A stretch of DNA of 64,000 nucleotides from Escherichia coli. GTDB lineage: Bacteria > Pseudomonadota > Gammaproteobacteria > Enterobacterales > Enterobacteriaceae. Shown here one piece after another: positions 35,999 to 48,793 of this stretch. Made by a program: the position numbers and the translations under genes. The number at the start of each line of letters is the position of its first letter. Within the stretch, counting starts at the first letter, position 1. The notes under the pieces are model-generated. The model was not told where the DNA came from and did no database searches. It saw nothing but the letters and a program-made list of their open reading frames with translations. The stretch lies in assembly GCF_003334335.1 (NCBI RefSeq), contig NZ_QOWQ01000005.1. One strand, 5' to 3'.

Positions 35999-37189
35999 AT
36001 GAGTGAATTTATTGCCGAAAACCGCGGCGCGGATGCCATCACCCGACCGAACTGGTCAGCCGTTTTCTCGGTGGCGTTTTGTGTCGCCTGTCTGATTATC
36101 GTTGAGTTTTTGCCCGTCAGTTTGTTGACGCCAATGGCCCAGGATTTAGGCATTTCGGAAGGGGTTGCCGGGCAATCGGTGACCGTGACCGCCTTTGTGG
36201 CAATGTTTGCCAGTTTGTTTATTACCCAGACAATTCAGGCTACTGACCGCCGCTACGTTGTTATTTTGTTTGCCGTTTTGCTGACGCTCTCCTGCTTGCT
36301 GGTTTCCTTTGCTAACTCATTCAGTTTGCTTTTAATCGGTCGTGCCTGTCTGGGGCTGGCGCTGGGCGGGTTCTGGGCGATGTCGGCGTCGCTGACCATG
36401 CGTCTGGTGCCGCCGCGTACGGTGCCGAAGGCGCTGTCGGTGATCTTCGGCGCGGTTTCTATTGCGCTGGTGATTGCCGCGCCGTTGGGCAGTTTTTTAG
36501 GCGAGCTTATCGGTTGGCGCAATGTCTTTAATGCGGCGGCGGTGATGGGCGTGCTGTGTATTTTCTGGATTATCAAATCATTGCCTTCACTGCCAGGCGA
36601 ACCCTCGCATCAGAAACAAAATACTTTCCGCTTATTACAACGTCCGGGTGTGATGGCAGGGATGATCGCCATCTTCATGTCTTTCGCCGGGCAGTTTGCT
36701 TTCTTCACGTATATTCGCCCGGTGTATATGAACCTGGCGGGATTCGGCGTGGATGGCTTAACGCTGGTGCTGTTGAGTTTTGGTATCGCCAGCTTTATTG
36801 GTACGTCGCTTTCGTCGTTCATTCTTAAACGTTCGGTAAAACTGGCCTTAGCAGGCGCGCCGTTAATACTGGCTGTGAGTGCGTTGGTACTGACGTTGTG
36901 GGGAAGCGATAAAATCGTTGCTACCGGCGTGGCGATTATCTGGGGGCTAACTTTTGCATTGGTTCCCGTCGGCTGGTCAACGTGGATCACCCGCTCGCTG
37001 GCCGATCAGGCAGAAAAAGCCGGGTCTATTCAGGTGGCGGTTATTCAGCTTGCTAATACCTGTGGCGCGGCAATCGGCGGTTATGCGCTGGATAATATTG
37101 GTCTGACTTCGCCGTTGATGTTGTCCGGCACATTGATGTTGCTGACTGCATTGTTGGTTACTGCAAAGGTGAAAATGAAGAAATCCTGA
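35999..37189 (+). CDS. nepI: Purine ribonucleoside efflux pump NepI (MFS)
   Basis: Start at [10 protein letters not shown] (396 aa). Confidence 0.85.
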
Positions 37190-37229
37190 TATCAGGTAAA
37201 GAAGCGTTGGTCAGTAGTTGTTGCTGTTC

Positions 37230-37523
37230 TTACATATCCGGGCATTCTACCTTACCCAACGCTTCCCAATAATTGCTCTGATTATTACGTTCCATCGCCA
37301 CGATGGCCTCGCGTATATGTTGTTTATTGTTTTCATCTGACAACATTAACTTTTCCCACGCTTCATCTGATAATGACGCCTGTGGCGTGCAAATTTTACG
37401 TAAATCTTGTAATACCGTGGTTTTCTCTTTTGCGGACTGCAGTGAGCTAAAAGGCGACTCGGCGTATACGATGCCTGGCATAGCGAAAAAAGTGAAAATA
37501 AGCAGTAGTGTCGTTGGTTTCAT
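37230..37523 (-). CDS. yicS: Secreted small protein YicS
   Basis: 97 aa with N-terminal signal peptide. Confidence 0.8.
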   Translation of the reverse strand: MKPTTLLLIFTFFAMPGIVYAESPFSSLQSAKEKTTVLQDLRKICTPQASLSDEAWEKLMLSDENNKQHIREAIVAMERNNQSNYWEALGKVECPDM

Positions 37524-37744
37524 GGATTCAACCTTTTACAAATGTGTATCGAATGAAGCATAAGTGTAGTTTGCTTTCATCGCTCTCATCATGCTGTACG
37601 AAACGCGCTTGCGTGGTCAGTAAGAAGTGCCAGACTTTATATTCCACTTTTATTCCTTTTTATTCTTATCGATAGCGTTTCGTTTTTTAAACCGCAGCGA
37701 CCTTACCGCTATAGTCAGGTAATCATTAATAAAAGGATAAAAAA

Positions 37745-38563
37745 ATGAAACTGACAACACATCATCTACGGACAGGGGCCGCATTATTGCTGGCCGGAAT
37801 TCTGCTGGCAGGTTGCGACCAGAGTAGCAGCGATGCAAAACACATTAAAGTTGGCGTTATAAATGGCGCAGAACAAGATGTCGCGGAAGTCGCTAAAAAG
37901 GTGGCAAAAGAGAAATATGGCCTCGATGTTGAACTGGTAGGATTTAGCGGTTCGTTGCTACCGAACGATGCGACAAATCATGGCGAACTTGATGCGAATG
38001 TCTTCCAGCATCGACCCTTTCTTGAACAAGATAATCAGGCGCATGGTTATAAACTGGTAGCGGTGGGAAATACGTTTGTCTTCCCTATGGCGGGTTATTC
38101 CAAAAAAATCAAAACCGTGGCGCAAATAAAAGAAGGCGCGACAGTGGCGATCCCCAACGACCCGACCAACCTTGGTCGCGCACTTTTACTGTTGCAAAAA
38201 GAGAAGCTAATTACTCTGAAAGAGGGAAAAGGGTTATTACCTACCGCGCTGGATATAACCGATAATCCTCGTCATTTGCAGATTATGGAACTCGAGGGGG
38301 CGCAGCTCCCGCGCGTACTGGATGATCCCAAAGTTGATGTAGCGATTATCAGCACCACTTACATTCAGCAGACCGGGCTTTCTCCGGTGCACGACAGCGT
38401 ATTTATTGAAGATAAGAATTCGCCGTATGTGAATATTTTGGTGGCACGGGAAGATAATAAGAATGCAGAAAACGTGAAGGAATTTCTGCAATCTTATCAA
38501 TCACCCGAAGTCGCTAAAGCGGCAGAAACCATTTTTAACGGTGGCGCGGTGCCTGGCTGGTAA
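37745..38563 (+). CDS. nlpA: Lipoprotein NlpA (methionine-binding MetQ paralogue)
   Basis: 272 aa; signal peptide with lipobox LAGC. Confidence 0.9.
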   Translation: MKLTTHHLRTGAALLLAGILLAGCDQSSSDAKHIKVGVINGAEQDVAEVAKKVAKEKYGLDVELVGFSGSLLPNDATNHGELDANVFQHRPFLEQDNQAHGYKLVAVGNTFVFPMAGYSKKIKTVAQIKEGATVAIPNDPTNLGRALLLLQKEKLITLKEGKGLLPTALDITDNPRHLQIMELEGAQLPRVLDDPKVDVAIISTTYIQQTGLSPVHDSVFIEDKNSPYVNILVAREDNKNAENVKEFLQSYQSPEVAKAAETIFNGGAVPGW

Positions 38564-38566
38564 TTC

Positions 38567-39490
38567 TCACTTATGCCGCGCCGGACGATTTATTTTTCTG
38601 GCGCGGCGACGGGAATCCATTGAAATCAAAATCACCGATGACAGAATCAGCAGCGTTCCCAGCCAGTCCGGTAATGTGAACGTGATCCCCAGCAACAGCA
38701 AAGAGAGTAGCGCGCTACTTAATGGTTCTGCACAGCTCAAAATGCTGGCTTTTGGACCGCCAATTAATTGTGCTCCTTTCAGGTACAGACTAAATGTCAG
38801 GGACGTACCAATGACCACCAAATAAAAAAACGCCAGAATCAAACTGCCGTTAACGACAAAGTTTGTTCCTTGTCTGGCATAAAAAGGCAACAGAATCAGA
38901 CCGCCAATCAGCATACTCCAGCCGACGACTGGTAACGTGCCATAGCGGGCAATTAGCGTTGAGGGATAGGTGGTATAGAATGCAGCAGCAAATGCCGAGG
39001 CAATGCCCCAGAACAACGCGGCAGGAGAGATCGATAATGACGTCGGATTACCGTGTGTCACCAATAAAAAAGTCCCGACCAGCGATGTCAAAATAGCGCA
39101 GAAAACCAGAATGCCCGGGCGCGATTTACGCACCAGTGAGAACCAGGCGACGATAATCGTCGGTGAGAGGAATTGCAGCACCGTTGCCGTGGCTGCGTTC
39201 GATTTTTCGATGGTTAGCAAAAAAGTGAGCTGTACAGTTAGCGCGCCAACCACGGAAAAAATCAGCAGGCTAATGGCATCTTTATGATTGTTAATAATAG
39301 AAAAGATTTTATCGCCATGAACAAATGACAGCGTCAGTAGAATCAAACCGGCGAATATCAAACGCGTCATAGTCAAAAACTGCGACGACATCTGGCTTTG
39401 CTCCATGATGTATTGCGCGCAGACCCCTGAACTTCCCCACAACACGGCGGCAATCAGAACGTTCAGCATCCCCTTTCTGGTGGAACCCAT
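38567..39490 (-). CDS. yicL: EamA/DMT-family transporter YicL
   Basis: 307 aa, 10-TM EamA-like. Confidence 0.85.
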
Positions 39491-39600
39491 TTTTCCCTCT
39501 GCATACTGTTTTGTCGTTTATGTATGCAGGCATGATAGCAAAAATGGCGAGGATGGCTCTGTTTGCGCCACGCCGATTTTTCTTAGCCCAGACTGGTGAG

Positions 39601-40785
39601 CTAAATATCTTTAATAAACAGCAGGCAAATCATCGCAATACCCAACATCCCTATCGCCAGCCAGAACAACGCATGGTAGCTCCAGATTTCAACCATAATT
39701 CCGTCAACAGAGCCGGCGATAATCCAGCCGACGCGTGAAGTATTTGCATATAACGTTGTCGCAGAGCCTATTTTTTCAGGCATCAAGTCCTGAAAATAAA
39801 GCATGCCGATACCACAGAGAATACCAAGGAAGATGGCATTAAGAATTTGCAATTCCAGCTCAACCGCCGGAGTCGTCGCCATGAGTACGCTGGCGTAAAA
39901 ACACATTCCACTCACGATAGCAATGAGCATTAATAGTCGCTTGCCAATACGTTTCATGTAATAGCCTGCGATTAACATCATCGGAATTTCCAGACCGGCA
40001 GCGATACCAATCATTTCTCCAGCCAGTTTATCGGTTAGATGCAGTTCATCAATAATAAATAGCGGCATATTTATCATGTAGAGATTATTCGCCGCCCACA
40101 TCATTGAACAGACCACAAAAAGTAGCCGCGTATCCCGCTTCCTGTGGGTGGAGGGTAAAATTTCTACGGGTTGGGTAACGACAGGAATATTTCTTTGTAT
40201 TGATGGCAAAAACAACCAGACTATCAGTCCGCAAACAACAAATGCGATGGCAGCGGTGAGATACATCACTTTAAAACTAAATCCCATTGCCAGTTCATAA
40301 GCGAGCGGTGGCCCGATAACCCAGGCAAGCGAGATCTGAGCACGTAAAAATGTACTGAACATGACCGTCTCACGGCCTGTTCTGTCGGCGTGTTCACGGG
40401 CGAGGGCGAACATTTGCGGGTTTGCGGTGGAAGCAAAACTACTCAGAAGTACGCCCGTTGAGAGGAGAATGAAGTAGTTGCGATTCCACGCAAAAAGCGT
40501 GCAGGCCAGCACTCCAAATAAGCAACATAGCAGAATCAGTAATTTACGGTCGCCTTGTTTATCGGAGTGCCTTGCCAGAAATTGACTGACCAGAATTCCC
40601 ATAATAGCGCTACCGGTGAAGAAAAAACCTACCATTATAGGACGGGCTTTCAGTTCATCTGCGAGGAATATACTTAGGGTAGGAGTCTGAAGAGCGCCCG
40701 CAATACCCGTCAGAAAGGCGACAAGTAAAAATGCCGCGGCAGTGAGATCAAGTATTTTTGATGGAGTGGTAGCCGTTTTTTGCAT
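39601..40785 (-). CDS. setC: Sugar efflux transporter SetC (MFS)
   Basis: 394 aa MFS. Confidence 0.9.
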   Translation of the reverse strand: MQKTATTPSKILDLTAAAFLLVAFLTGIAGALQTPTLSIFLADELKARPIMVGFFFTGSAIMGILVSQFLARHSDKQGDRKLLILLCCLFGVLACTLFAWNRNYFILLSTGVLLSSFASTANPQMFALAREHADRTGRETVMFSTFLRAQISLAWVIGPPLAYELAMGFSFKVMYLTAAIAFVVCGLIVWLFLPSIQRNIPVVTQPVEILPSTHRKRDTRLLFVVCSMMWAANNLYMINMPLFIIDELHLTDKLAGEMIGIAAGLEIPMMLIAGYYMKRIGKRLLMLIAIVSGMCFYASVLMATTPAVELELQILNAIFLGILCGIGMLYFQDLMPEKIGSATTLYANTSRVGWIIAGSVDGIMVEIWSYHALFWLAIGMLGIAMICLLFIKDI

Positions 40786-41421
40786 TCTTCTGAATCACCG
40801 GGCGAAAAAATATAACTGAGTTACAAATAAGTACCAGTCGAATGAGTATTGTATTAAGAATTTTTGAGTATCGCTGATACAACCAGAAAGCAATGCTAGC
40901 GCAATATTATAGGGCCAGCAATTGAGATTATTAGTAAAAGCATGTTAAGAATTAATTACCGAATTTATATATTAATTATAGTAAGGCAATGAGCTATTTT
41001 TGATAGTAAAAATAAAACAAGTTGATTTGATATATTAAATGAACAAATTAATCTTGATGGCAGTCTGATTATTGGTGAAGTTTATAGTCAGTTTTTTTCG
41101 CCAGCGGTTAAAGAAATAGAATAGTCGTATAAAAAAGGGTGTTCTGGGGCGAGTAAAACAACATCTTCACCTTAATGGCGATACAGTTGGCTGAGAGTCA
41201 GCAGGGGGGCAAATCACCTGCAAATAAACACGGCGCATACTGGCGTGAATATCGCGGATGCGTTCGAGGACAGAAGAACCGACAGGCGGATTCTTCAGCC
41301 GCTCATCGTCCATCACAAAACCTTAGACCAGGTATTCCTGAAGCCGATTGAATATTGAGCAGTAGAAAATATCTGGATTGACAGTATTACAAGGGGTTGG
41401 AGAACGTCAGGAGAGGCATTT

Positions 41422-41516
41422 TGGCGGAAGATCACAGGAGTCGAACCTGCCCGGGACCGCTGGCGGCCCCAACTGGATTTGAAGTCCAGCCGCCTCACCG
41501 GAGACGACGATCTTCC
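41422..41516 (-). tRNA. selC: tRNA-Sec (selenocysteine, anticodon UCA)
   Basis: Reverse complement matches the 95-nt tRNA-Sec GGAAGATCGTCGTCTCCGGTGAGGCGGCTGGACTTCAAATCCAGTTGGGGCCGCCAGCGGTCCCGGGCAGGTTCGACTCCTGTGATCTTCCGCCA, with long extra arm. Confidence 0.95.
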
Positions 41517-41808
41517 GCGCCTCGATTGCTACATGGAGGCGGGGCGCATTATAGCTACTTCCTTGAGTTTCTACATCCCCCAGATCAGTTTTTTCCGCCT
41601 AATACACGCAGCGTATTATCACGAAAGCATTATAGTTCATATAAAATCCATATTTTACAATGATATATGAGCGGAATTAACGCTACCACGATCACATAAA
41701 ACAAGAATCATAAATTAATAACCAGATATCGGAATATTCGCTCTCACAGGGATGGTTTACAAAATGCGTTATCGGTCTCAGCACCCCTATAGCATCAAGG
41801 AAAAGTAG

Positions 41809-43191
41809 ATGAAGAGTGAAGTGTTGTCCGTTAAAGAGAAAATTGGTTATGGCATGGGAGACGCCGCCAGCCACATTATTTTCGATAACGTAATGTTATA
41901 TATGATGTTCTTTTATACCGATATTTTTGGCATTCCTGCCGGATTTGTCGGAACCATGTTTTTGGTCGCTCGTGCACTGGATGCGATTTCCGATCCTTGC
42001 ATGGGGTTGTTGGCCGATCGAACGCGCTCTCGCTGGGGTAAATTTCGTCCGTGGGTACTGTTTGGCGCACTGCCATTTGGGATCGTCTGTGTACTGGCCT
42101 ATAGCACGCCAGATCTCAGTATGAACGGAAAAATGATTTATGCAGCAATTACTTACACCCTACTTACCTTACTTTATACCGTCGTCAATATCCCTTACTG
42201 CGCATTGGGTGGTGTAATCACCAATGACCCGACTCAGCGTATCTCGCTGCAATCCTGGCGTTTTGTGCTGGCGACCGCGGGAGGCATGCTTTCTACGGTT
42301 CTGATGATGCCACTGGTTAATTTAATTGGTGGTGATAATAAACCACTCGGTTTCCAGGGTGGTATCGCGGTCCTTTCCGTGGTGGCATTCATGATGCTGG
42401 CATTCTGTTTCTTCACCACTAAAGAACGCGTTGAAGCACCACCTACAACGACGTCTATGCGGGAAGATTTACGTGATATCTGGCAAAACGACCAGTGGCG
42501 GATTGTCGGTTTACTAACCATTTTCAATATCCTGGCGGTGTGCGTACGCGGTGGAGCGATGATGTATTACGTCACATGGATTCTGGGTACGCCGGAAGTG
42601 TTTGTCGCTTTTCTCACCACTTATTGCGTGGGTAACCTGATTGGTTCCGCTCTGGCAAAACCGCTGACCGACTGGAAATGTAAAGTCACTATTTTCTGGT
42701 GGACGAACGCCCTGCTGGCAGTGATTAGCCTCGCGATGTTCTTTGTTCCCATGCAGGCCAGCATCACTATGTTTGTCTTCATCTTCGTGATTGGTGTGTT
42801 GCATCAACTGGTGACACCTATCCAGTGGGTAATGATGTCCGATACCGTCGACTACGGCGAGTGGTGCAATGGTAAACGCCTGACCGGGATCAGTTTTGCT
42901 GGCACGCTGTTTGTGCTCAAACTGGGGTTGGCCTTCGGCGGCGCTCTTATCGGCTGGATGCTGGCTTATGGCGGATATGATGCGGCAGAAAAAGCGCAGA
43001 ACAGCGCCACGATTAGCATCATTATTGCGCTATTCACGATTGTTCCGGCGATCTGTTATTTGCTGAGCGCGATTATCGCTAAACGCTACTACTCACTCAC
43101 GACGCACAATCTGAAAACCGTTATGGAACAGCTGGCCCAGGGCAAACGCCGTTGCCAGCAACAATTCACCTCTCAAGAAGTGCAGAACTAA
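41809..43191 (+). CDS. yicJ: GPH-family glycoside/cation symporter YicJ
   Basis: 460 aa. Confidence 0.9.
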   Translation: MKSEVLSVKEKIGYGMGDAASHIIFDNVMLYMMFFYTDIFGIPAGFVGTMFLVARALDAISDPCMGLLADRTRSRWGKFRPWVLFGALPFGIVCVLAYSTPDLSMNGKMIYAAITYTLLTLLYTVVNIPYCALGGVITNDPTQRISLQSWRFVLATAGGMLSTVLMMPLVNLIGGDNKPLGFQGGIAVLSVVAFMMLAFCFFTTKERVEAPPTTTSMREDLRDIWQNDQWRIVGLLTIFNILAVCVRGGAMMYYVTWILGTPEVFVAFLTTYCVGNLIGSALAKPLTDWKCKVTIFWWTNALLAVISLAMFFVPMQASITMFVFIFVIGVLHQLVTPIQWVMMSDTVDYGEWCNGKRLTGISFAGTLFVLKLGLAFGGALIGWMLAYGGYDAAEKAQNSATISIIIALFTIVPAICYLLSAIIAKRYYSLTTHNLKTVMEQLAQGKRRCQQQFTSQEVQN

Positions 43192-43200
43192 GGAACGGCA

Positions 43201-45519
43201 ATGAAAATTAGCGATGGAAACTGGTTGATTCAACCTGGCCTCAATTTGATTCACCCGCTTCAGGTGTTCGAGGTTGAACAGCAGGGTAATGAAATGGTGG
43301 TCTATGCTGCCCCCCGTGATGTGCGTGAACGTACCTGGCAGCTTGATACGCCTTTATTTACGCTGCGCTTTTTCTCCCCACAGGAAGGTATTGTCGGTGT
43401 ACGGATTGAGCATTTTCAGGGGGCGCTGAATAACGGTCCTCATTACCCACTCAATATTTTGCAGGACGTGAAGGTCACAATCGAAAACACAGAGCGTTAT
43501 GCTGAGTTTAAAAGTGGCAACTTAAGTGCGCGTGTCAGCAAAGGTGAGTTCTGGTCACTGGATTTTCTGCGCAACGGCGAACGTATTACCGGTAGTCAGG
43601 TGAAAAATAATGGCTACGTGCAGGACACGAATAATCAACGAAATTATATGTTTGAGCGGCTGGATCTTGGCGTTGGCGAAACAGTTTATGGTCTGGGAGA
43701 GCGCTTCACTGCCCTGGTGCGCAATGGTCAAACGGTAGAGACCTGGAACCGGGACGGCGGCACAAGTACTGAACAGGCGTATAAAAATATCCCGTTCTAC
43801 ATGACTAACCGTGGTTATGGGGTACTGGTCAATCATCCCCAATGCGTCTCTTTTGAAGTGGGATCGGAGAAAGTCTCCAAAGTGCAGTTCAGCGTTGAGA
43901 GTGAATATCTCGAATACTTTGTTATCGACGGTCCGACGCCGAAAGCGGTACTTGATCGTTATACCCGCTTTACTGGTCGTCCGGCGCTGCCGCCCGCGTG
44001 GTCCTTCGGTCTGTGGCTAACCACTTCATTTACCACCAACTACGACGAGGCGACAGTAAACAGCTTTATCGATGGTATGGCGGAACGCAATCTGCCACTG
44101 CATGTTTTCCACTTTGACTGTTTCTGGATGAAAGCCTTCCAGTGGTGCGATTTTGAGTGGGACCCGCTGACTTTCCCGGACCCGGAAGGGATGATCCGCC
44201 GCCTGAAAGCGAAAGGGCTGAAAATCTGCGTCTGGATTAACCCCTATATCGGGCAAAAATCCCCCGTCTTTAAAGAGTTACAAGAGAAAGGCTATTTACT
44301 CAAACGCCCGGACGGTTCGCTGTGGCAGTGGGATAAATGGCAGCCAGGTCTGGCGATTTATGACTTTACCAATCCGGATGCCTGCACATGGTACGCCGAC
44401 AAACTGAAAGGTCTGGTCGCGATGGGCGTTGATTGCTTTAAGACCGACTTTGGCGAACGTATCCCAACCGATGTTCAGTGGTTTGACGGTTCCGATCCGC
44501 AGAAAATGCATAACCATTATGCGTACATCTACAACGAACTGGTGTGGAACGTGCTCAAGGACACCGTTGGTGAGGAAGAAGCCGTCTTGTTTGCCCGCTC
44601 GGCCTCCGTTGGTGCGCAGAAATTCCCGGTACACTGGGGTGGTGACTGTTACGCTAACTACGAATCAATGGCGGAAAGCCTGCGCGGTGGTTTGTCTATT
44701 GGCCTTTCAGGTTTTGGCTTCTGGAGCCACGATATCGGCGGCTTTGAAAATACCGCTCCGGCACACGTTTACAAACGCTGGTGCGCGTTTGGTTTGCTCT
44801 CCAGCCATAGCCGTTTACATGGCAGCAAATCTTATCGTGTGCCGTGGGCCTACGATGATGAGTCCTGTGATGTGGTGCGCTTCTTCACGCAACTGAAATG
44901 CCGCATGATGCCGTATCTGTATCGTGAAGCTGCGCGTGCAAACACGCGGGGTACGCCGATGATGCGGGCCATGATGATGGAGTTCCCGGACGATCCGGCT
45001 TGTGATTACCTTGACCGTCAATACATGTTAGGCGACAACGTGATGGTTGCGCCGGTGTTCACTGAAGCGGGCGATGTGCAGTTCTACCTGCCGGAAGGTC
45101 GCTGGACACACCTGTGGCACAACGATGAACTCGACGGTAGTCGCTGGCATAAACAGCAGCACAGCTTCCTGAGTCTGCCCGTTTATGTGCGTGATAACAC
45201 TCTACTGGCGCTGGGCAACAACGATCAACGTCCCGATTACGCGTGGCACGAAGGCACGGCATTCCACCTCTTTAATCAGCAAGACGGGCATGAAGCCGTC
45301 TGTGAAGTGCCCGCTGCTGACGGTTCGGTGATCTTTACTCTAAAAGCAACACGTACTGGTAACACGATTACTGTGATTGGTGCGGGCGAGGCGAGGAACT
45401 GGACACTGTGCTTGCGCAATGTTGTGAAAGTAAATGGTCTGCAAGGCGGTTCGCAGGCTGAAAGTGAGCAGGGGCTGGTGGTGAAGCCTCAAGGGAATGC
45501 GCTGACAATTACGTTGTAA
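43201..45519 (+). CDS. yicI: Alpha-xylosidase (GH31) YicI
   Basis: 772 aa; GH31 catalytic region (WINPYIG, FKTDFGE). Confidence 0.95.
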
Positions 45520-45571
45520 TCTATTGATGGAATGCCGGGTACGTCTGAGTCGTACCCGACGAGATTGATGT

Positions 45572-47281
45572 TTACTGCACCGGCTCCGTCGATGTAACTT
45601 CACCGCTGGAAACGACGCCCGCATTCATGGTTTGAGTCACTTGCTGCTTTGCGGCGTTCACGGCATGCAATTGCCCGCTAACCGTAGGTTTCAGCGGGGC
45701 ATTGGCCTGAATATCTCCACTGGCGGTAAGCTGAATATTGCCGTCGCCAGTCAACGGTAATTCAGGCCATCCCCATTGTTGCAAAATATTCACCGGCACA
45801 CCGCGTCCATTCAGGCTGATATGGGTCTGACGTTGTGGCGTTTGTGAAACACTGGCGGTGGCTTCCAGAATGCCTTTTTCAGTAAATGCACTCAGTTCGC
45901 TGATATTCACCGTGCTGCTGTTGGCGGTCAGCGCCAGCGACGGGCGACGAACATCAACACGATTGAATGTCGCGGCGGCGGCATTCAGATTCGCCGAGCC
46001 ACTCCAGACGCCCCATTTATGATCGGTAACCAGCGTCAGGTTGGCACCGTAACCATCGAGCGTGGTGAGCTGCCACGGGAAGTCAGGGTCGATATCAATG
46101 ATCAGATTGCGGCTGGCGCTAAATCTCTTCAGTTGCAGGCTGTTTAACCAACCGGGTGTCGTTTCCATCCACAACTGTTGCCAGTTTTTCGGCAAGGTAT
46201 ATTCCAGCCCGGCAATTGCCGCATCATCAAGGATCAACGTTTTCCCGTCACGCAGCCAGTTCCCTGACGTTCTGACCATACCCCCTTCCCAGCGGCTGGT
46301 GAACTGGCGCAGCGCTACGCCCTGCGGGGAAAATTCCGCGTTTATAATCGGGTCAAATAAATGCAGCGAACCATAAATGAACTCGCTAGCGTTCATCGAC
46401 AGTTTGCCTTCTTGTGTCTGCCAGTCATCTTTACTGAAGGTCATGTTGCGCAAGCTGAGATCGAGGTCGGTCACCGCCCAGTCCGGACCTTGCAAACGAG
46501 CATCGATCACTTCCAGGCGACCAATCTGCAACGACGGGACAGAGCGTAATGGCGCAAAGAAGTCGGTTAGCGATTTTTCGCTTTGTAGACGGATATCCGC
46601 CATGCGCAGGTTTTCCACTTGCCAGCTGCCGTCGGCGTTACGCTGCGCGTTTCCGGTTAATGTCCCGCGCGCGATGTCGGCACCCAGGTTAGTCAGCGTA
46701 ACGCGATCGTTATCAATACTGCCTTCAATCAGTACATTGGTGGCAGGAACATCATTGAGCGAAAGCGATCCGGCACTAAACTGAATCTGCGCCTTCGTAC
46801 CCAGCACTTTACCGGCTTCTGGTGACCACGGAACCACGCCGCCATTTACCCGCTGCGCGCTCAGTTTCCATTCGCTATTCGGGCTATTAAACGCCATATC
46901 ACGCAGTTGCAGACGATCGGCTTTGAACGGTAGCGGCGCGGTCTGGTCGGTGAGATTCAGCGTCCCGTTTTCCAGCAGGATGGTATCGACATGGCGTGGT
47001 TCGGTCAGTTGCCGACTACTTAGCGCAATGTCGACACTTTTGGCCACCAGGGTCGCGGGCTGGCCATCACGACCAAACGTGACATTCTCCAGCACGATAT
47101 GAGATGGCGCGGAAAAACGGTGATCCATCGCCCCGAAGGCCAGATGATAGTCGCTATTCTCGGAAACCCATGCGCTGATATGTTCTGCTCCCCAGCGGGT
47201 TTGCAGAAGAAAATAGAGGCCAGCGATCACCACTAACAGAGCGATGAGAATGTAGAGAAGCAGCTTCCCAATAAATTTCAT
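45572..47281 (-). CDS. yicH: AsmA-family protein YicH
   Basis: Start at MKFIGKLLLYILI (569 aa); N-terminal TM anchor. Confidence 0.85.
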   Translation of the reverse strand: MKFIGKLLLYILIALLVVIAGLYFLLQTRWGAEHISAWVSENSDYHLAFGAMDHRFSAPSHIVLENVTFGRDGQPATLVAKSVDIALSSRQLTEPRHVDTILLENGTLNLTDQTAPLPFKADRLQLRDMAFNSPNSEWKLSAQRVNGGVVPWSPEAGKVLGTKAQIQFSAGSLSLNDVPATNVLIEGSIDNDRVTLTNLGADIARGTLTGNAQRNADGSWQVENLRMADIRLQSEKSLTDFFAPLRSVPSLQIGRLEVIDARLQGPDWAVTDLDLSLRNMTFSKDDWQTQEGKLSMNASEFIYGSLHLFDPIINAEFSPQGVALRQFTSRWEGGMVRTSGNWLRDGKTLILDDAAIAGLEYTLPKNWQQLWMETTPGWLNSLQLKRFSASRNLIIDIDPDFPWQLTTLDGYGANLTLVTDHKWGVWSGSANLNAAAATFNRVDVRRPSLALTANSSTVNISELSAFTEKGILEATASVSQTPQRQTHISLNGRGVPVNILQQWGWPELPLTGDGNIQLTASGDIQANAPLKPTVSGQLHAVNAAKQQVTQTMNAGVVSSGEVTSTEPVQ

Positions 47282-47401
47282 GGTCTTCCATCCCGTGAAA
47301 TGCACATAAGGGAGTTATGCACGATTTACGCGCAATCCTCAAGGCGGGAATGGTGAAAGAGGTGAGACTGCGGCGGTAATTATCTTACCGCCGCCAGTGA
47401 A

Positions 47402-48793
47402 TTACTGTTTTTCTGGTGGGAAAATCAGATTCAGCACGATGGCAGTAATACCGCCCGCGGCGATCCCGGAGGAGAGCAGGTTTTTCAGCCATTCAGGGGC
47501 AAACTGCAAAATCAGCGGCTGCTGAGACACGCCCAGACCAACCGCCAGCGACAGCGCGATAATCAGAATCGCCCGACGGTTCAGCGGCTCACGAGAAACG
47601 ATACGCACACCGGAGGCGGCGATGGTGCCAAACATTACAAGCGTTGCGCCGCCCAGAACCGGTTCTGGAATGTGTTGTACAAAACCGCTCACTGCCGGGA
47701 ACAGACCCAGCACGATCAACATCAGCGCGACGACAAAACCGACATAGCGGCTGGCAACACCAGTCAACTGGATCACTCCGTTGTTTTGCCCGAAGCAGGA
47801 GTTCGGGAAGGTGTTAAACACCGCCGAAACAAACGAGTTCAGGCCGTTTGCCAGCACGCCACCTTTCAGGCGTTTCATGTACAGCGGACCGGACACTGGC
47901 TGTTCGGAAACGTCAGAGGTCGCCGTGATATCGCCAATGGTTTCCAGCGAAGTGATCATAAAGACCAGCATCAGCGGCAGCAGCAGACTCCATTCAATGC
48001 CAAGACCGTAATAGAGCGGCGTTGGCACCATAATCAGTTCTTGCGTCATCGGTTCGTTGCTTTCTGGCAACATGCCCATAAACCACGCCAGCGCATATCC
48101 GGCCGCCATCGCAATCACCAGTGAGGCCACGCGTAAGTAAGGGTTACGTTGACGGTTAAGCAGGATAATTAAGGCTAAGACCACGCCTGCCAGCAGCAGA
48201 TTTTTCGGTGCGCCGAAGGTGTTATCGCTCATGGCTGCGTAACCGCCGCCAATGGACGTTAACCCAACCTGAATTAGCGACAGGCCGATAATCATCACCA
48301 CAACGCCAGAAACCAGCGGCGTAATAATGCGGCGCGCCAGATGCAGAACGCGGGAGATCACCATCTCGGTGCAACTTGCCAGCATCAACGTGCCGAACAA
48401 AGCCGCCATCATGGTAGGAACATCAGCACCACCGGTTTTCAGCGCGGTACCGCCCATAATCAGCGGGGCAACAAAGTTGAAGCTGGTGCCCTGAATAGAC
48501 AACAGCCCGGAGCCAACCGGACCCCAGGCCTTAATTTGAATAATCGATGCCACACCGGAGGCAAACAGCGACATACTAATAATGTGTTGCGTGTCTTGTG
48601 CCGGTAAACCCAGCGCCTGGCAGATTAATAGCGCTGGCGTGATCACCGCAACGAACATCGCCAGCAGATGCTGACAGGCGGCAAACAGGGTTTGAGGAAG
48701 CGGCGGACGATCTTCAAGACGGTAAATCAGTTCGCTGTTTTGAGTCTGCGCAACCGGTTGCGCATTTTCTGACTCGAGGGTGGAAACAGACAT
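47402..48793 (-). CDS. xanP: Xanthine permease XanP (NCS2)
   Basis: Start at [12 protein letters not shown] (463 aa). Confidence 0.9.

Follow-up and report, generated by a model that had tools for sequence, protein, structure and literature searches.

The window analyzed here is a stretch of 64,000 nucleotides of Escherichia coli DNA. According to ARAGORN, it contains a single tRNA gene, selC, which encodes the selenocysteine tRNA (tRNA-SeC, anticodon tca) on the minus strand (Table 1). The gene scores 83.8 bits against the Rfam model RF01852 (gathering score 47), which places it in the tRNA-Sec family, and an alignment of five E. coli sequences with a complete gene has no variable columns in it (CE10, in which the tRNA copy is partial, was left out of this count). 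Both programs bear out the position and strand that an earlier first-pass annotation, made from the sequence alone, had assigned to selC. Its estimate of around 640 bp between selC and setC was likewise accurate, as the gap (40786-41421) measures 636 bp. The gene order nlpA-yicL-setC-selC-yicJ-yicI is that of K-12. MG1655 additionally has yicU (b4797), a small protein gene of 19 codons that lies antisense in yicL and for which the equivalent position here is approximately 39036-39095 on the plus strand.

Table 1. Features at and around selC. Variable or indel columns were counted in an alignment of six E. coli spacers (95.6-100% identity), selected to be divergent rather than sampled at random.
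Feature	Position	Strand	Description or basis	Variable/indel columns
nlpA	37745-38563	+		
yicL	38567-39490	-		
Lineage-variable selC-yicL segment (setC, spacer and relic)	39520-41406		Homology breaks against DS566-2 (L002)	
setC, MFS sugar efflux transporter	39601-40785	-	394-aa ORF; part of the lineage-variable segment	1.2% (5' end)
AT-rich block directly upstream of setC	40786-41079	-	294 bp, 29.3% GC	3.7%, no indels
Fast-drifting DNA between relic and AT-rich block	41080-41181			17.3%
Residual ORF in the rhuM relic	41167-41316	-	49 codons from GTG 41316; 48 codons from ATG 41313	
rhuM relic, pseudogene (yicT, b4653, in K-12)	41182-41343	-	tblastn, PGAP, MG1655 annotation	9.3%
selC 3' flank, 78 nt, leader of an ancestral selC-proximal rhuM	41344-41421	-	E69 comparison	17.7%
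Approximate att core	41407-41445		Last 24 nt of the tRNA and about 15 nt of 3' flank; single copy, i.e., unoccupied attB	
tRNA-Sec selC (UCA)	41422-41516	-	95 nt, CCA encoded; ARAGORN and Rfam	
yicJ	41809-43191	+		
yicI	43201-45519	+		

The selC gene is the insertion target of the LEE and LPA islands (PMC9144400). In the window, no integrase-borne island is integrated at this site. When up to three mismatches are allowed, the last 24 nt of the tRNA gene match only once in the 64 kb, and a blastn-short search of 36000-48000 with selC and its flank returned only chance words of at most 11 nt. A tblastn search of the whole window with the 394-aa integrase of the selC island of BL21(DE3) gave a best E-value of 1.6. 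These searches uphold the claims of the first-pass annotation that selC has neither an integrase beside it nor a direct repeat of its 3' end. As positive controls, a selC 3' repeat was detected in CE10, DS566-2 and E69, and because the searches find such repeats in other genomes, their negative outcome in the window is meaningful. In CE10, the same spacer comes after island DNA and an incomplete repeat (with a 2-nt insertion) of the 24 nt that end the tRNA. In BL21(DE3), it is island genes that precede this spacer, and a P4-type integrase (394 aa) adjoins the real selC. With a complete tRNA gene, a single 3' end and no tyrosine recombinase gene or fragment adjoining it, the site in the window has the features of an unoccupied attB, and the pairing of an integrase with flanking direct repeats that marks a decayed island is absent at selC here.

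This is also the most frequent condition of the locus. The selC/spacer junction found here occurs in 2492 of 5426 complete E. coli genomes, which makes it the commonest state. The spacer together with setC is present in 3602 of the 5426, and in around 1110 genomes (3602 minus 2492) selC and this spacer are thus separated by an island. A full-length rhuM cassette is found instead in 845 of the 5426 genomes, counted by the presence of the cassette, and some others carry, e.g., the LEE. With the content downstream of selC viewed in sampled rows, the genomes divide over these four states at approximately 46, 20, 16 and 18%. In island-bearing genomes, the match on the selC side ends at 41407-41421 and that on the setC side at 41442-41451. 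As the matches end at the island junctions, the att core can be placed roughly at 41407-41445. The 15 nt directly 3' of selC (41407-41421) are kept even beside wholly different content such as the LEE or a full rhuM. Their retention fits an att core that reaches beyond the end of the tRNA.

The first-pass annotation had described the site as apparently empty and free of cargo. The former holds insofar as there is no island and the junction is the commonest one in E. coli, but the spacer is occupied by a relic of rhuM, and the absence of cargo is thereby contradicted. The query with which this relic was tested is the 345-aa RhuM of DS566-2 (locus L002, 7397-8434), itself a match to Pfam PF13310 with an E-value of 6e-118. 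By tblastn, 162 bp of the spacer correspond to residues 121-185 of the 345 (E = 5e-20, 63% identity), inside the Pfam domain, which spans residues 70-323 of the reference RhuM. The relic is thus homologous to PF13310, but it is no intact full-length frame, as it retains only 65 of 345 residues, or 19% of the gene. Within it, an in-frame TAA occurs at 41323-41325 and two in-frame deletions have removed 8 and 3 codons. No other part of RhuM, N- or C-terminal, was found in the spacer by tblastn. NCBIfam gave no match for the relic, the full-length RhuM or the 165-aa protein encoded next to rhuM in DS566-2, and PHROGs gave none for RhuM. On identical loci, PGAP annotates a pseudogene of a "RhuM family protein" with an internal stop and missing N and C termini, and the MG1655 pseudogene yicT (b4653) maps to 41182-41313. 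The relic and yicT are hence already part of the K-12 and RefSeq annotations, and the locus is an ordinary, already catalogued one. Literature searches returned only unrelated papers for yicT and nothing mechanistic on the function of RhuM. The GC content of the relic is 52.5%, compared to a window mean of 51.8%. Over its full length, its DNA is at best around 75% identical to any intact rhuM recovered, and no intact source allele was found among these; the rhuM of Escherichia sp. MOD1-EC7003 is 90% identical to it over 71 nt.

In view of these observations, a virgin spacer, made up of native intergenic DNA in which no island cargo was ever present and an ORF is open only by chance, is extremely unlikely. 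A virgin site would account for the lack of an integrase, an att duplication or a cargo-sized gene between selC and setC, and for the configuration being the commonest in E. coli. It would leave unexplained, however, why the 65 aligned residues match RhuM at all, why two independent annotations (PGAP and MG1655) place a pseudogene here, why the 78-nt flank of selC is the leader of rhuM in E69 and why other lineages have different DNA in place of the entire segment 39520-41406. An origin of the RhuM match in chance composition is ruled out by the conserved block MDDERLKNPPVGSSV...LERIRDI. We consider it highly probable instead that the K-12-type selC state consists of an intact single-copy attB without an integrase-borne island, next to old and eroded island-type DNA. 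The first-pass annotation had itself proposed that a partial selC repeat or an integrase fragment in the spacer would betray a decayed island. Neither is present in the spacer, but a fragment of a cargo gene, rhuM, is, so that the proposal is borne out in spirit rather than to the letter.

The 48-codon ORF that had been noticed in the spacer exists exactly as quoted (MDDERLKNPP...SPLR, from the ATG at 41313). Judged by its sequence, it is a frame left open inside the rhuM pseudogene yicT. The earlier remark that this ORF may be spurious is therefore half right: its peptide is not conserved, yet the ORF is not noise either. In four of the six E. coli lineages compared, its frame is broken by 1-nt indels. 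A C5/C6 tract at 41204-41209 shifts the frame in three of the six and replaces the last 12-13 residues, and SJC33 has an extra 1-nt deletion that results in a peptide of 32 aa. Frame and peptide are thus not kept among relatives as those of a small-protein gene would be. It is very unlikely that yicT is a live small-protein gene, with a 48-codon frame co-opted from the rhuM fragment and translated, even if a frame of 46-48 codons from the same ATG is open in five of the six lineages, the first 35 residues differ by only 0-3 substitutions across those five and a weak AAGG lies around 9 nt upstream of the ATG. The C-terminal 12-13 residues are wholly different between the C5 and C6 alleles, one lineage encodes only the 32-aa peptide, and non-synonymous changes (H23R, I22M, R27C, V11G) occur. 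Moreover, the codon upstream of the ORF, TAA here, is AAA in four of the six lineages (Lys, as in intact RhuM), which makes the frame simply continuous with rhuM codons. The relic also has 9.3% variable columns, compared to 1.2-3.7% in the neighbouring functional DNA. The changes in the relic read as pseudogene drift, with no conserved peptide. For short ORFs near tRNA genes in general, a comparison with the cargo families of islands is advisable before small proteins are proposed.

The spacer is far from uniform. Its description as AT-rich in the first-pass annotation applies to the 294 bp proximal to setC but not to the 255 bp proximal to selC, of which the GC content is 48.6%; setC itself has 46.2% GC. 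The fast-drifting DNA between the relic and the AT-rich block (41080-41181) shows no match to the C-terminus of RhuM, to the rhuM loci or to an integrase. Wherever rows of the 3602 genomes were sampled, the AT-rich block was linked to both setC and the relic. It has no homologue in the 80 RhuM loci described below, and in a plasmid collection it matches three E. coli records only, of 1.0-4.9 Mb. Based on its position and conservation, the block probably carries the promoter or leader of setC, i.e., a regulatory region. A promoter scan of 40700-41850 returned no minus-strand sigma-70 site at threshold and hence none to serve setC, and in the combined promoter and terminator scan of the same interval fewer sites were found than in shuffles. 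A perfect TATAAT is present on the minus strand at 40911-40906, but it is not claimed as a promoter, the -35 hexamer matching at three of six positions by eye. Rfam, searched over 38000-44000 with E-values up to 1, returned tRNA-Sec only and thus no known sRNA or leader in the spacer. The AT-rich block is far better conserved (3.7% variable columns) than the adjacent 340 bp (9-18%), and no promoter, Rfam family or ORF accounts for this.

The relic and setC belong to a segment that varies among lineages as a whole. Outside this segment, the window and DS566-2 (L002) are 95-98.5% identical, and the homology breaks off at 39519/39520 and 41406/41407. Other characteristics of a decayed island are found here: the segment is tRNA-adjacent, variably present and of atypical composition (GC 29-46%, compared to 51.8% for the window). 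In DS566-2, selC is followed after 52 nt by a full-length rhuM, a partial selC repeat, the 165-aa hypothetical gene and yicL. The repeat, located 112-139 nt past the rhuM stop, is a degenerate attR that matches at 28 of 32 nt. Neither DS566-2 nor E69 has setC between selC and yicL, and none of the 80 RhuM loci yielded a copy of it either.

E69 is a divergent lineage labelled E. coli; across yicL-nlpA, it is 88% identical to the window. Its selC region (L006, features at 204-248, 728-1762, 1878-1980 and 2021-2062) starts with a partial selC copy, a DUF4942-like relic and a full-length rhuM. These are followed by a second partial selC copy fused to sequence resembling the 78-nt flank (1878-1980, 84.6% identical to window positions 41443-41341) and, starting 40 nt past this leader-like sequence, by codons 1-14 of a further rhuM (2021-2062). 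After this stump come an unrelated gene on the other strand and yicL. Since the same flank precedes the rhuM stump in E69, the 78 nt after selC in the window represent the old rhuM leader. The layered organization of the E69 region is suggestive of serial captures at one att site.

The variable segment could also be regarded as one decayed selC islet, composed of setC, spacer and relic (39520-41406) and acquired in a single event, in which case the site would be occupied rather than empty. The variable presence of the block fits this idea, as do its sharp breaks at 39519/39520 and at 41406/41407 (the latter 15 nt past the tRNA), a GC content below the window mean in both setC and the AT-rich block, and the different genes that fill the same slot in other lineages. 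Nonetheless, the yicL end has no att repeat and there is no integrase, and E69 shares a further 44 nt with the window on the yicL side, meaning that the breakpoints differ among lineages. Such differing breakpoints are better accommodated by serial deletions and replacements than by one integrative event, and we regard a single-event islet as rather improbable. It overlaps with the preferred explanation of an unoccupied attB beside eroded island-type DNA, and the main differences concern wording and whether setC came together with rhuM.

Following the preferred explanation, an Escherichia ancestor would have had a full rhuM, located around 120 nt downstream of selC. A deletion may then have joined the 78-nt leader to codon 121 in the K-12-type lineage, where a second event may have removed everything after codon 185, joining the relic to the AT-rich region upstream of setC. 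The K-12-type keeps codons 121-185 and E69 codons 1-14, which would point to independent deletions of one ancestral gene. The relic would now be under neutral drift, and the conserved 294 bp would serve as promoter and leader of setC, being AT-rich DNA of a foreign type that is likely silenced. The putative attB would have stayed competent for later island capture, and in some lineages rhuM may have been re-acquired at the same att site. The spacer keeps no att repeat or integrase fragment that would directly attest to an earlier integration in this lineage.

The association of rhuM with selC extends well beyond E. coli. A scan with the RhuM query, covering one genome per species, yielded 80 loci that were kept. 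In 24 of these 80, all from Enterobacterales other than E. coli, rhuM is preceded by a tRNA-Sec gene of the same orientation, and in 15 of the 24 the gap between both genes is below 900 nt. For comparison, a single selC gene is expected by chance in a random 6-kb flank at approximately 0.1-0.2% of loci. The hosts include Enterobacter, E. albertii, Erwinia, Yersinia, Serratia, Pseudescherichia, Pantoea, Raoultella, Proteus, Morganella, Photorhabdus, Providencia and Hafnia. In E. coli as well as in Yersinia, Pseudescherichia and Hafnia, the rhuM stop is followed at a distance of 105-139 nt by a partial selC repeat. For the latter three (105-132 nt past the stop), the shuffle p was 0/300, and weaker matches were seen in Serratia (p = 0.053) and in a metagenome-assembled genome of Erwinia (p = 0.013). 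The succession of selC, rhuM and repeat resembles a small att-flanked cassette without an integrase. For E. albertii (L013, 4507-5927), the stretch between selC and a full-length rhuM contains a truncated integrase of 266 aa and a DUF4942-like ORF of 206 aa. This region resembles a CP4-like island that has undergone an internal deletion and carries rhuM as its distal gene. Also in Salmonella, as reportedly described by Blanc-Potard et al. in 1999, the rhuM of SPI-3 adjoins selC, and the region is mosaic and has no functional integrase.

Full-length RhuM matches the PADLOC model PDC-S05, a candidate defence group, with an E-value of 3e-173. The relic in the window would accordingly descend from a candidate anti-phage gene and not from a proven virulence gene. 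A possible, though tentative, generalization is that rhuM is the conserved distal gene of a family of selC-specific integrative elements across Enterobacterales, of which the cassettes are retained for defence or re-mobilised. If so, an integrase-less cassette of around 1.3 kb, made up of selC, rhuM and a partial selC repeat around 110-130 nt past the stop, may survive in many genera. It could be kept for its defensive role, or integrases encoded by other selC islands could mobilise it in trans. The yicT relic of K-12 and the tandem arrangement of E69 may then be remnants of several captures at a single hotspot. The only mildly new item is how widely the selC-rhuM-attR association is spread among genera, which could be a modest lead for studies on defence-gene hotspots. 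More generally, empty tRNA hotspots can hold fossils of past cargo, exemplified here by a defence-candidate gene cut down to a 162-bp pseudogene. As a standard marker, an intact selC indicates that islands of the LEE/LPA type are absent, and the window represents such a case.

Among known systems, MG1655 is the closest counterpart. Its selC, yicT and setC (b3658, b4653 and b3659) follow the same order, with the same pseudogene at equivalent coordinates. Both sequences are structurally alike, but the 20 differences in 5001 nt show that the window is not MG1655 itself. The selC islands of E. coli (LEE, LPA and CP4-like islands, e.g., that of BL21(DE3)) use the att core found here. Compared to these, the window has no integrase, duplicated att or cargo island and shares only the target. 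The rhuM of the DS566-2/IHE3034 group has the same position relative to selC, belongs to the same family and shares an identical first 15 nt of flank. There, however, rhuM is intact (345 aa), followed by attR and not accompanied by setC, and the relic has only around 75% DNA identity to it. Finally, rhuM belongs to SPI-3 of Salmonella, an island that also sits at selC (PMC3680342). As in the window, rhuM of the sugR-rhuM region lies beside selC in a mosaic context without a functional integrase (PMC3680342). In the Salmonella serovars that carry it, however, rhuM is intact and part of a 17-kb island, whereas here 19% of the gene is left and its neighbours are different.
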